DNA from: an uncultured Bifidobacterium sp. | GTDB lineage: Bacteria; Actinomycetota; Actinomycetes; S36-B12; UBA5976 | Direction of reading: 5' to 3' | Assembly: GCA_964456135.1 (NCBI GenBank) | Contig: CAYVZD010000003.1 | Location: 18,905-60,293 of the forward strand | Length of the DNA stretch: 41,389 bases | Shown: positions 7,575 through 41,389 of the stretch, piece after piece | How positions within the stretch are numbered: position 1 is the first letter of the stretch | How the letters are laid out: each line of letters opens with the position of its first letter | Translations under genes and position numbers: made by a program | The notes under the pieces: generated by a model | Seen by the model: the letters and a program-made list of their open reading frames with translations, nothing else | Told to the model about the DNA's origin: nothing | Databases searched by the model: none

Positions 7575-7786
7575 TAGCCACCCTTTCGCCGGTTGTGCGA
7601 AACCAACGACTAGGTCGGCTCGCGCAAAAATCCTTTATTTACCTATTCTTTTTTACCTGACAACAGCCGATTTAGGAAACGCAAATGTTATGTCTGTGAA
7701 ATTATTGACATAATTAATGCAAAATTTGCCGATAATTCGTCAGAAAATACCTATAAACATGGGATAAAACACAATTTATTTGCGGT

Positions 7787-7800
7787 GTGAGAAGTCTCAC
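7787..7800. promoter_or_regulatory. perfect 6-2-6 palindrome GTGAGA-AG-TCTCAC in the divergent intergenic region (candidate operator)
   Basis: Read directly from the sequence: gtgagaagtctcac is its own reverse complement. It lies in the 328-nt A/T-rich gap between the M23 peptidase gene (-) and the B12-domain gene (+). A 2-nt spacer is too short for an RNA hairpin loop, so a dimeric DNA-binding site is more plausible. The regulator is unknown. Confidence 0.3.
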
Positions 7801-7902
7801 TTAGTACCTTATTAATTATTAATACTTCAACCCTTTGTTTTTGGGTGCGCCCAAATTGCTCAATAGTGGCTTAATTATTGAATAACTCTATATTTAGTCG
7901 AT

Positions 7903-26411: not shown

Positions 26412-26479
26412 TTTTGATTACGGAATGCCCTGCTGGCCCACTATGTCGGCGGCCCGTACATCTAGTTTCTGGCGGGTAA

Positions 26480-34464: not shown

Positions 34465-35133
34465 ATGGTTCGGCTGTTATTAGTCGACGATGACCCTAAG
34501 TTAGTTGACCCGTTAACGAAGGTGCTCAACTCAGACGGCTATGCCGTTGCACATGTTGGCAATGGATCGACTGCAATCGAAAAAATCAAAGTTGATCCAC
34601 CGGATTTAATGCTGCTTGACGTGAATCTTCCTGGAATTGATGGCTTTAAAGTTTGTGAAACTTTACGTAAGCAAGGCTTTGATTTCCCAATCGTTATGAT
34701 CAGCGCAAATTTTGAATCTTCAGATGTAGTACATGGTTTAGAAATTGGTGCAGATGATTACGTCACTAAGCCATTCGAAAAATCAGAGTTATTGGCTAGA
34801 TTGCGAGCAGTTGCACGTCGAACTTTAAATATTGATGTCACCTCAATTTCCAGTGGCCGGATAAAAATTGATCGAAAATCTCATACCTGCTGGGTAGACG
34901 ATGAAGAAGTAGAGCTAACTCGAATCGAGTATTCGTTACTTGATTATTTGATGCAAAACCAAGGTCGAGTATTAAAGCGACAATTAATTATTCGAGAAAT
35001 TTGGGCAACTTCTTGGCTTGGTCCAACCAAAAATTTAGATATGCACATTTCTACGTTGCGCCGCAAGCTTGGCCCTGGTGCAAGTCAATTAAAAACAGTT
35101 CGTGGTGTTGGGTTTCGTTTGGATGCAACATGA
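34465..35133 (+). CDS. OmpR/PhoB-family response regulator
   Basis: 222 aa. The receiver domain has LLVDDD, the phospho-acceptor context LMLLDVNLPGIDG, and KPF. The C-terminal winged helix has LTRIEYSLLDYL and VRGVGFRL. Confidence 0.92.
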   Translation: MVRLLLVDDDPKLVDPLTKVLNSDGYAVAHVGNGSTAIEKIKVDPPDLMLLDVNLPGIDGFKVCETLRKQGFDFPIVMISANFESSDVVHGLEIGADDYVTKPFEKSELLARLRAVARRTLNIDVTSISSGRIKIDRKSHTCWVDDEEVELTRIEYSLLDYLMQNQGRVLKRQLIIREIWATSWLGPTKNLDMHISTLRRKLGPGASQLKTVRGVGFRLDAT

Positions 35134-35819
35134 GTAACTCAGACGTACTTTCGGAAGTTTTGCGGTTTGGCGCGTTGTTAGCACATCAACTAAAAAATCC
35201 TTTAACAGCATTGAGTTTAAATCTTGAAGAGTTAACCGAGCGATTTGATGGAACTGATTATGCAAAGATCGCTGCACAGTCACATGCGCAAGTAATGCAA
35301 ATGAATAAATTAATTGAGCAAATTTTTGCCCTTTGGCAGCTTGCCGTAAAAGAAGAAATTACATCGATTGATTTAGTTGAAACGACTAAATCTGTAACTA
35401 AAAATTTCGAAAAAGAATTTCGTAACTCGAATAGAACGATTGAAATTTCTAAAGCTGAAAAACTATTTGTATTGGGATGTGCTCAACTCGAAGCCCAAGT
35501 TTTAGCGGTCTTGATTGACAACTCACTTAAACATGGTGCTGGCAGAACCAAAATTAGTATTTGTAAGAAAGATCAACATGCTGAAATCAGAATTCAAGAT
35601 GAAGGTGCAGGTATAAACCCGAGACTCAAAAATCGGCTCATGAATTTCGGGGCGACCACGACTGGTAATGGCGTTGGATTAGCTTGGGCAAAAAATCAAG
35701 TTTTGCATGATGGTGGTCGACTAGAAGTTACTTCTTTTTCACCAGCCGTGTTTAGTCTCTACTTAAAACTTGACCCAGTCATTCATGGTTTTGACATGAT
35801 GAATGAGGAAGTTGATTAA
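35130..35819 (+). CDS. minimal cytoplasmic histidine kinase (DHp + catalytic domain only)
   Basis: The ATG at 35130 overlaps the regulator's TGA (ATGA). It encodes 229 aa. The H-box LAHQLKNPLTAL has its His at residue 19. The N-box is LIDNSLKHG, G1 is QDEGAGI and G2 is GNGVGL. There is no hydrophobic segment and no room for a PAS, HAMP or GAF domain. The track ORF start at 35001 (TTG) lies inside the regulator gene. Confidence 0.8.
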   Translation: MSNSDVLSEVLRFGALLAHQLKNPLTALSLNLEELTERFDGTDYAKIAAQSHAQVMQMNKLIEQIFALWQLAVKEEITSIDLVETTKSVTKNFEKEFRNSNRTIEISKAEKLFVLGCAQLEAQVLAVLIDNSLKHGAGRTKISICKKDQHAEIRIQDEGAGINPRLKNRLMNFGATTTGNGVGLAWAKNQVLHDGGRLEVTSFSPAVFSLYLKLDPVIHGFDMMNEEVD

Positions 35820-40433: not shown

Positions 40434-41048
40434 ATGTCATCCTTAATACTCGATTTACTTTTCACCCCAATTTGCCTTGGCTGTAAAAAACTTGGTGATC
40501 ATGTTTGTCGTGATTGCTTGAACAGGTTAAAAATCGTAAATCGCCATGATTTAGCCGGGATTGAAGATTTAATTTGTGCAAGCGATTATTTGGGATGGCT
40601 CCGTGATCAAGTCGTCGCTTATAAATCTGGCAAATACCAAAATGCAATTGGCTTGGCTCAGGTTTTGATTTCTAAATGCTTGTCTGAATTGCCCGGATAT
40701 TCATTGGTGCCAATTCCATCAAGCCCAGAGAAAATTAAGAATAGGGGAATCGACACGATTGGCCACATAACTCAAAAAATTCAAAATTTGTTGCCTTCTG
40801 TTTCGGTATCTCCGGTATTGAAATTAACTAAAAATCTTCCTGATCAAGTAGGTCTAACTAAAGCGCAGCGACTCAAAAATCTGCAGGCTGCGTTTACCTG
40901 CACAAAAACCCTTACAAAGCCCGTAATTCTTGTTGATGATGTGGTTACTACGGGTGCAACTTTAACTAGTGCCGCACAAACGCTACTTAAATGTGGAGCG
41001 CCAAAAGTTTACGCTGTTGGATTATGTGCTACTGAAAAACTAAGTTAA
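40434..41048 (+). CDS. comFC: ComF-family protein (phosphoribosyltransferase domain, ComFC-like)
   Basis: 204 aa. It has an N-terminal 4-Cys zinc-finger-like motif (CLGC...CRDC) and the PRT-fold motif ILVDDVVTTGATL. The position after lpqB is as in mycobacteria (Rv3242c, from memory). Confidence 0.85.
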   Translation: MSSLILDLLFTPICLGCKKLGDHVCRDCLNRLKIVNRHDLAGIEDLICASDYLGWLRDQVVAYKSGKYQNAIGLAQVLISKCLSELPGYSLVPIPSSPEKIKNRGIDTIGHITQKIQNLLPSVSVSPVLKLTKNLPDQVGLTKAQRLKNLQAAFTCTKTLTKPVILVDDVVTTGATLTSAAQTLLKCGAPKVYAVGLCATEKLS

Positions 41049-41059
41049 TTTATTACTAC

Positions 41060-41323
41060 GGCATCCACCTGGGTCCGTGATTGCGTTCGACAAGTAAACC
41101 TTCGAAGATTATTTGTCTAACAAGCCGATGCCAGCCGCAGGCAAAGCGGTCCACGTAAGACGACTCTTGGTCGTTGAGCACGGTGCGGTTTAGAAGTAAG
41201 ACCTGCCTGATGAGCAAAAAAATTACTTGTCAGAGAGTATTAGTAGTGGCGAATAGACGCTGCGAAAATTCCAGTAGGCGATTGTGGGGTCGAAAATCAG
41301 GTCGGCCAGGTGGATGTCTTTTT
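41060..41323 (+). ncRNA. candidate structured non-coding RNA downstream of comFC (position consistent with the raiA-motif RNA)
   Basis: A 13-bp terminal helix pairs 41060-41072 (GGCATCCACCTGG) with 41306-41318 (CCAGGTGGATGTC). Twelve pairs are Watson-Crick and one is G-U. The helix is followed directly by a T5 run at 41319-41323. Internal hairpins include CCGC-AGGCAAA-GCGG (41135-41149) and ACGAC-TCTTG-GTCGT (41160-41174). There is also a possible 6-bp helix GACCTG/CAGGTC (41200-41205 with 41298-41303). No ORF of 60 aa or more is present. My hand count gives 52 G+C in 41061-41160, against 31 in the intergenic stretch 7701-7800. The class assignment rests on synteny only; I cannot recall the raiA consensus well enough to align it. 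Confidence 0.5.
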
Positions 41324-41389
41324 AAATGCCAAAACGGCGGTGTCGGGCGGCATAAGAGCGAAGTGCACGCAGGAAATCAACTTTTCGAA

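Follow-up and report, generated by a model that had tools for sequence, protein, structure and literature searches.

The raiA-motif RNA gene after comF

The window analysed here (the whole stretch of 41,389 nucleotides (nt) of contig CAYVZD010000003.1, from an uncultured Bifidobacterium sp.) carries near its right end, at 41060-41318 on the + strand, the gene for a raiA-motif RNA. The RNA belongs to Rfam family RF03072 (Weinberg et al. 2017, PMC5737381; Soares et al. 2024, PMC10861870), known as ModT in Clostridioides difficile. The gene lies directly after the comF gene in the same orientation, and beyond it the 3' end of a uppS gene enters from the opposite strand. When the window was searched with the Rfam raiA model, positions 41064-41314 (+) were matched with 155.4 bits (E 4.7e-39; gathering score 101.3), and the alignment spanned model positions 1-209 of 209 without truncation. 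As shown by a scan against all 4227 Rfam families, this was the sole match of the whole 41-kb window, in one copy. A scan of 40900-41389 with permissive filters, in which the 6S, tmRNA and RNase P models served as controls, gave no competing family; the next-best hits had an E value of about 1 and scores far under their gathering thresholds.

A preliminary description of this DNA, made from the sequence and its open reading frames (ORFs), had called the region a raiA-motif RNA directly after comFC and in the same orientation. This central call is confirmed by the full-model match to RF03072 and by covariation among relatives. Its fallback, an unclassified structured RNA, is not needed. The RNA measures 251 nt (259 nt including the full stem P1) and has all eight stems; its subtype is the largest described, with stems P1-P8 and the pseudoknots PK1 and PK2. 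It is therefore not the compact representative that had been expected: with 251 nt and eight stems it has the size of the 253-nt Nocardioides RNA, in a family whose size reaches down to 113 nt (PMC12968392). A 37-nt insertion reported by cmscan at 41086-41122 was considered as a novelty and rejected, being the known optional stem P2, which is found in 42% of family members (PMC12968392).

The locus is a canonical copy of an established family in its usual place, and no new RNA class. Taken as a whole, a raiA-motif RNA gene with the fold described and the mode of action, transcript ends and function proposed below is the best explanation of the region, with a probability of about 0.9. The standard Rfam annotation would give the raiA label automatically, and the practical value of the analysis lies in correct annotation, of the stretch as raiA RNA and of the window end as uppS.

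Architecture of the RNA

The stems were mapped under the guidance of the cryo-electron microscopy (cryo-EM) description of the 253-nt RNA of Nocardioides sp. Iso805N (PMC12968392). Conservation was assessed in 17 distinct sequences of the low-G+C subgroup to which the window belongs. The features are as follows (bp, base pairs).

41064-41314, +: raiA-motif RNA, full-length RF03072 match (cmscan)
41060-41063 with 41315-41318, +: outward extension of P1a, 4 bp; pairs kept in 17/17 relatives, one with a compensatory change
41064-41072 with 41306-41314, +: P1a; compensatory U-A/C-G swaps at two pairs in 8/17 each and at a third in 1/17
41073-41074, +: GU bulge after the 5' strand of P1a (feature per PMC12968392)
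41075-41077 with 41303-41305, +: P1b, invariant within the subgroup
41078-41081 with 41296-41299, +: P1c, invariant within the subgroup
41084-41122, +: P2, optional stem-loop of 39 nt outside the Rfam consensus, stem 41085-41097 with 41109-41121; compensatory changes
41100-41107, +: P2 apex CUUCGAAG, an 8-nt palindrome, invariant in the subgroup; one copy in the window
41124-41150, +: kinked hairpin P3a/P3b; P3a 41124-41127 with 41147-41150, P3b 41130-41132 with 41140-41142; 100% paired
41128-41129 (AU) opposite 41143-41146 (AAAG), +: asymmetric internal loop of P3, as in the solved structure
41134-41139 (GCCGCA, apical loop of P3b) with 41184-41189 (UGCGGU), +: PK1, 6 pairs, 17/17 paired
41151-41154 (CCAC) with 41284-41287 (GUGG), +: P4, invariant; placement per PMC12968392
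41155-41179, +: P5 hairpin; three pairs with compensatory changes
41181-41182 (CG) with 41291-41292, +: PK2; C-G and G-C in the window
41190-41199, +: single-stranded linker UUAGAAGUAA, family signature UUAGA(C/A)GUAA, between PK1 and P6
41202-41278, +: multi-stem domain P6-P7-P8; P6 41202-41206 with 41274-41278
41207-41214 with 41226-41233, +: P7; compensatory changes at 4 or more pairs
41237-41241 with 41267-41271, +: P8a; compensatory changes at 3 pairs
41246-41251 with 41258-41263, +: P8b; compensatory changes at 2 pairs
41241-41245 (UAGUA) opposite 41264-41267 (GAAA), +: E-loop of P8, matching the family feature
41284-41314, +: 3' strands of P4, PK2, P1c, P1b and P1a with the GGU bulge (cmscan and alignment)
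41300-41302, +: GGU bulge in the 3' strand of P1 (feature per PMC12968392)

The three-segment P1 (P1a/P1b/P1c) with its GU and GGU bulges, as the family requires, is present. The 13-bp terminal helix of the preliminary description (41060-41072 with 41306-41318) stands, with 12 Watson-Crick pairs and one G-U pair, and corresponds to the family stem P1a plus four extra pairs. All 13 pairs are kept in the 17 relatives, four of them with compensatory changes. The 4-bp extension was also considered as a special terminator stem; this was rejected, since an extension of 4-6 bp is the norm across at least about 120 actinobacterial raiA loci. Within P1c, the pair A17-U (41080 with 41297) is G-C in other Actinomycetota, which is a compensatory change at the level of the family. 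The resulting mark of the subgroup, GTGATTG...ATCAGG as against GTGGTTG...ACCAGG elsewhere in Actinomycetota, is a handy search signature.

In the core, P3a/P3b showed no both-sided changes among the 17 sequences, and its backing is the sequence identity to the solved structure (Nocardioides G61-G83). Changes in PK1 were one-sided only, so that covariation is uninformative there. PK2, which has only two pairs, was paired in 91% of cells with no covariation, and three relatives break one of its pairs. The linker is the same 10-mer, UUAGAAGUAA, in 15/17 relatives and UUAGAAAUAA in the other two. A compensatory change was also seen at 1 pair of P6; the multi-stem P7/P8 domain with an E-loop occurs in 68% of family members.

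As homology and covariation show, the fold consists of a rigid core formed by P3a/P3b, P4, PK1 and PK2, closed by the long three-segment P1 arm, with P2, P5, P7 and P8 pointing outward. The 10-mer at 41190-41199 stays single-stranded.

Covariation and conservation among relatives

Relatives were reached through ComF homologs and DNA patterns. An exact look-up of the window ComF protein returned no record, and a single-protein scan of genome contigs with LpqB found no relative. The subgroup relatives are labelled Candidatus Nanopelagicales or unclassified Actinomycetota and include freshwater metagenome-assembled genomes (MAGs). Every relative with enough DNA past comF gave an RF03072 match of 146-157 bits. 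Locus L153 (contig JACCDO010337048.1, 22.6 kb), as used here up to a point within the RNA, is identical to the window over the compared stretches. The pattern scan of species-representative genomes returned at least 120 stretches, nearly all of them raiA loci with P2, among them the solved Nocardioides locus and several Candidatus Nanopelagicales MAGs.

When the 17 sequences were folded jointly by RNAalifold without the Rfam model, P1, P2, P5, P6, P7 and P8 were recovered, with compensatory change at 24 pairs. When the cryo-EM-type structure with its two pseudoknots was imposed on the alignment, 93.8% of cells were paired, as against 32-46% with slid partners; both-sided changes were counted at 22 pairs, as against 1-10 in the slid controls. 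The covariation score was 0.207, compared with 0.114 in shuffles, and none of 500 shuffles reached 0.207. For the core helices P1b, P1c, P3, P4, PK1 and PK2, where covariation is neutral, the assignment comes from identity to the solved structure. Where the comF DNA of two genomes is 58-61% identical, the RNA reaches 80-91% identity; compared with Nocardioides sp. Iso805N, the values are 66% for the RNA and 44% for comF.

At least 12 complete metagenomic contigs end inside the raiA gene (L001, L006, L007, L008, L010, L136, L142, L148, L151, L154, L157 and L158), and the window itself ends 75 nt past the RNA. These breaks are likely to arise because a near-identical RNA among co-occurring strains splits assembly graphs, as rRNA genes do.

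Gene neighbourhood

The genes on the two sides of the RNA are the following (aa, amino acids).

40434-41048, +: ComF-family protein, 204 aa, with a zinc ribbon and a phosphoribosyltransferase-like domain (TIGR00201 comF, E 8e-21, under the cut-off)
41322-41389, -: 3' end of a convergent uppS (undecaprenyl diphosphate synthase), stop codon 41322-41324; matches the C-terminus of the L002 UppS

Homologs of the window ComF carry the name "ComF family protein". The gene is on the same strand as the RNA, 11 nt before G41060, and the upstream order is mtrA, mtrB (NF040691, 604 bits, above the cut-off), lpqB, comF. This mtrA-mtrB-lpqB-comF neighbourhood is the one listed for Actinomycetota (PMC5737381; PMC10861870). 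In the family, comFC lies upstream in 74% and raiA/hpf downstream in 66% of cases (PMC5737381; PMC10861870).

The next gene had been expected to be hpf. Translation of 41322-41389 instead identifies the downstream gene as a convergent uppS: 41322-41387 (-) gives RKVDFLRALRSYAARHRRFGI*, the last 22 codons, and the C-terminus of UppS that follows the RNA in relatives is RKVDFLRALRAYAARNRRFGI* (L002 UppS: PF01255, E 6e-72). The uppS stop lies 3 nt beyond the extended P1 and overlaps the T5 tract there, and comF and uppS converge at a distance of 273 nt. With this arrangement, the transcripts of uppS and raiA must either stop only a few bases apart or run into each other in antisense.

No hpf gene was found anywhere in the 41-kb window, whose contents are ordinary housekeeping genes. 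Among the subgroup relatives, hpf was likewise absent within 2.5 kb downstream, with L090 as the sole exception; the downstream genes are a convergent uppS, a paiB-like gene plus uppS, or an MFS transporter gene. In most sampled P2-type loci a co-oriented hpf follows the RNA at a distance of 33-190 nt, and in some it is farther downstream. The low-G+C subgroup has thus mostly lost the raiA-hpf linkage and kept the attachment to comF, which is a new small point. Loci without raiA-hpf adjacency are L002-L013, L025, L026, L044, L051, L085, L086, L113, L115, L116 and L148, as compared with L016-L134.

Composition, folding and coding potential

The RNA has a G+C content of 49.8%, higher than that of the window (43.4%) and of coding sequence (43.5%). 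The counts made by hand in the preliminary description (52/100 at 41061-41160 and 31/100 at 7701-7800) were exact. Its statement that this is the most G+C-rich non-coding stretch holds among the long spacers and fails overall, since the 68-nt spacer 26412-26479 has 54%; that spacer folded no better than its shuffles (z -0.04). The + strand of the RNA region folded at -90.5 kcal/mol (z -3.29), which 0/200 shuffles equalled, and the - strand folded less well (z -2.57). The absence of ORFs of 60 aa or more from the last 340 nt is correct for complete ORFs; it does not extend to the partial one, as 41322-41389 (-) encodes the UppS C-terminus.

An antisense ORF of 53 aa (41056-41217, -) overlaps the RNA and is present in the ORF list, and a similar antisense ORF occurs in Nocardioides (L045, 2020-2325). 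Together with long stop-free frames in several relatives, this would be the basis for regarding the region as the gene of a small protein. An analysis of stop-free frames in the relatives did not tell coding and non-coding apart. Against a coding function, indels of 1, 2 and 7 nt occur among relatives within the ORF span, and the substitutions are compensatory stem pairs without a codon-position pattern. The amino-acid similarity of the antisense ORFs is an automatic result of the conservation of the RNA, and the covariance model accounts for the entire stretch. A small protein is thus the least credible of the explanations considered, with practically no chance of being correct.

It could also be supposed that the region merely separates the convergent genes comF and uppS, as a structured spacer or a terminator for both directions, in which the 13-bp helix and the U5 tract are functional and the interior is incidental. 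The two genes are indeed just 273 nt apart, and on the + strand T5 comes directly after the long, G+C-rich closing helix. However, conservation is highest in the interior, with 80-91% identity and an invariant core and linker, and the same RNA stands beside a co-oriented hpf in about 100 other loci among the matches listed. In addition, the U tract is unconserved and the terminator scan finds nothing here. Relatives that share the comF/uppS arrangement retain the conserved motifs of the interior, where a mere spacer could have lost them. We therefore consider a mere spacer or terminator highly improbable.

Ends of the transcript

Two sequence elements flank the RNA.

41046-41051, +: -10-like hexamer TAATTT (TANNNT), 8 nt upstream of G41060; putative
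41319-41323, +: T5 tract; 41322-41323 are part of the uppS stop-codon complement

The likely 5' end of the RNA is G41060. Transcription would start near this position from a promoter with the -10-like TAATTT (41046-41051). The first three bases of the hexamer are the comF stop codon (TAA or TAG in the subgroup), and in nearly all subgroup members a TANNNT is found 6-8 nt before a conserved GGCA start (GGCG in L151). From its sequence and spacing, the hexamer may be a -10 element that overlaps the comF stop. At the other side, the RNA would end at or shortly past the 3' strand of P1 (41314-41323). A U5 tract after the helix on the + strand only, as noted earlier, is present as T5 at 41319-41323. 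The suggestion that it gives a defined 3' end was not borne out, because the tract is not conserved and relatives have CUUUAA, UAAAUA, UCAAAU, UUCAAC and others in its place. A terminator scan found nothing at this locus. On balance, we consider a start near G41060 and an end at 41314-41323 somewhat more probable than not.

The RNA could instead be a structured 3' untranslated region (UTR) of comF, produced by read-through and then trimmed to a stable domain closed by P1. The distance from the comF stop to G41060 is only 11 nt, the comF-RNA spacing is tight and constant over the subgroup, comFC is upstream in 74% of the family, and no + strand promoter of the sigma-70 type was found in the scan. 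Against this, transcription of the C. difficile RNA begins at one intergenic start under a SigA promoter of its own, and the TANNNT element keeps its constant distance of 6-8 nt from the GGCA start in the subgroup. In other Actinomycetota the gap between comF and the RNA reaches about 250-400 nt, which argues against obligate co-transcription. A comF 3' UTR is therefore unlikely, though it deserves some weight; it touches biogenesis alone and leaves the identity of the RNA unchanged.

Mode of action and function

A trans-acting, protein-binding structured RNA is the most likely mode of action. The RNA would be free-standing and would act in trans, not as a leader. This is deduced from the position of the sole downstream gene, uppS, which is encoded on the other strand with its end 3 nt beyond the extended P1; with no co-oriented gene after the RNA, a cis-regulatory role is excluded here by the gene arrangement. 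In Clostridia, deletions were complemented in trans and the authors rule out a role in cis (PMC10861870; PMC11706538).

The opposite possibility, control of a neighbouring gene in cis by a ligand-sensing riboswitch or leader, draws on the complex conserved fold, which resembles riboswitch aptamers, and on the position of hpf, which in most P2-type loci is the next gene and co-oriented with the RNA. Rfam types RF03072 as "Cis-reg; riboswitch", a type field that also speaks for this possibility, even though the published genetics show action in trans. At this locus, as in most of the subgroup, the gene after the RNA runs on the opposite strand and stops 3 nt short of the extended P1, and an expression platform is absent. 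Given also the trans-complementation of the published deletions and the exclusion of a cis role by their authors, a riboswitch is very improbable here.

As for the function of the trans-acting RNA, it would accumulate as an abundant, stable species. Its exposed linker and P1 arm would bind protein partners, for which KH-domain proteins of the KhpA/KhpB type are the current candidates, and the RNA would thereby tune the transition from growth to stationary phase. This proposal comes only from the clostridial work, where family members accumulate to very high levels as stable RNAs and influence how cells pass from growth to stationary phase, as well as sporulation, aggregation and the c-di-GMP level (PMC11706538, PMC10861870). 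In addition, the KhpA-KhpB heterodimer binds four family members, including the Nocardioides RNA, with a dissociation constant (Kd) of about 2 uM, and the exposed UUAGA(C/A)GUAA linker is the proposed docking site of KhpA/KhpB. No khpA or khpB gene was found in the 41-kb window. By analogy, we give an abundant, stable RNA that binds proteins through the linker and P1 arm and tunes this transition an even chance of being correct.

Several points weigh against the overall reading of the locus given above. The link to KhpA/KhpB is weak: the affinity is micromolar and the complexes are heterogeneous, and the KhpB analyses of the C. difficile authors revealed no binding of ModT (PMC11706538). The phenotypes all come from spore-forming Clostridia, and their transfer to this actinobacterium would be by analogy. 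As regards the ends, the conservation of the hexamer is confounded by the stop-codon bases that it shares with comF, and the sigma-70 scan found no promoter on the + strand. The U5 tract is unconserved, and the 3 nt before uppS are too short for a separate terminator hairpin. In this organism, we infer the transcript ends, the abundance and the independence from comF. Finally, none of the core helices P1b, P1c, P3, P4, PK1 and PK2 shows a both-sided change among the 17 sequences; they are either invariant or altered in one strand only.

Comparison with known members of the family

The window RNA shares with the raiA family (RF03072) the full-length match, P1-P8, PK1 and PK2, the bulges, the linker, the E-loop and the position after comFC. 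It differs in its downstream context: raiA/hpf follows in 66% of the family and in nearly all other P2-type loci, whereas the window RNA has no hpf next to it and is followed by the convergent uppS only 3 nt past the extended P1. It also differs in P2, which is otherwise hypervariable and has an apex of invariant sequence in the window subgroup.

The closest structural reference is the raiA RNA of Nocardioides sp. Iso805N (locus L045; 253 nt), which was solved by cryo-EM at 3.0 A (He et al. 2026, PMC12968392). It is of the same subtype (P2 plus P8), with 253 nt compared with 251 nt in the window and a P2 of 39 nt in both. The numbering of G10/U11, G14, U19, G20, A60, G61-G67, A70-A76 and A80-G83 is identical, and the sequences are 66% identical despite the very different G+C content of the hosts. 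Differences were found in P7 (14 bp in Nocardioides, about 8 bp with an A-rich 11-nt loop in the window), in P5 (3 nt shorter in Nocardioides), in the linker (UUAGACGUAA, with C, in Nocardioides and UUAGAAGUAA, with A, in the window) and in one P1c pair (G-C in Nocardioides, A-U in the window). Unlike the window, the Nocardioides locus retains the classical order comF-RNA-hpf.

ModT of C. difficile and the raiA RNA of C. acetobutylicum (PMC11706538, PMC10861870) are of the same family with a conserved core and are the only members with functional data. The clostridial RNAs are without P2 and measure 204-215 nt, whereas the window RNA has P2. Their SigA promoter is intergenic, and in some species a long isoform arises from a separate terminator farther downstream; the window locus has no room for either element.

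RaiA/ModT is among the most widespread structured bacterial RNAs whose biochemical function is unsolved, so each lineage that keeps it adds a constraint. Here, a low-G+C actinobacterium with a coding density of about 95% keeps the full eight-stem version at near-maximal size, and the RNA stays tied to comF even where hpf no longer adjoins. The locus fits the published picture of a housekeeping-type RNA that acts in trans, to which it adds little. The small new points are the loss of the hpf linkage, the invariant P2 apex and the comF stop that doubles as a -10-like hexamer.

The P2 apex of the low-G+C subgroup

Across Actinomycetota, P2 measures 23-53 nt and is hypervariable. In the subgroup, its apex is the invariant palindrome (C)UUCGAAG and the stem beneath it covaries. 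When metagenomic members were collected with a pattern that was independent of the loop, (C/U)UUCGAAG was found in 28/29 of them. Loci with the apex are L002, L005, L007, L011, L013, L025, L026, L044, L051, L085, L086, L090, L113, L115, L116 and L135-L163. Within the apex are a T-loop-like UUCGA and a second occurrence of the GAAG that is found in the conserved linker.

This invariant apex is a small comparative lead. That it is a lineage-specific interaction module is a speculative suggestion, which we think more probably wrong than right by a wide measure. Such a module could take one of three forms. The apex could dimerise the RNA through a self-complementary kissing loop, it could serve as a T-loop-like UUCGA module for the docking of a partner, or it could duplicate the GAAG(U) element of the linker and so provide a second site for a KH-domain protein. 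If the suggestion were true, the apex would be a natural handle on the partner of raiA RNAs.

Other features of the window

The longest spacer of the window, 7575-7902 (328 nt, 36% G+C), lies between the divergent genes for an M23 peptidase and a B12-binding-domain protein. Its folding was only marginally better than that of shuffles (z -1.96), and the Rfam scan of this spacer gave no match, including none to a cobalamin riboswitch.

A second response regulator (34465-35133) and a short histidine kinase of at most 272 aa (35001-35819) without an obvious sensor domain directly precede gtrA and mtrAB. The mechanically called ORFs of the two overlap by 133 nt, so the start of the kinase was probably called too early.

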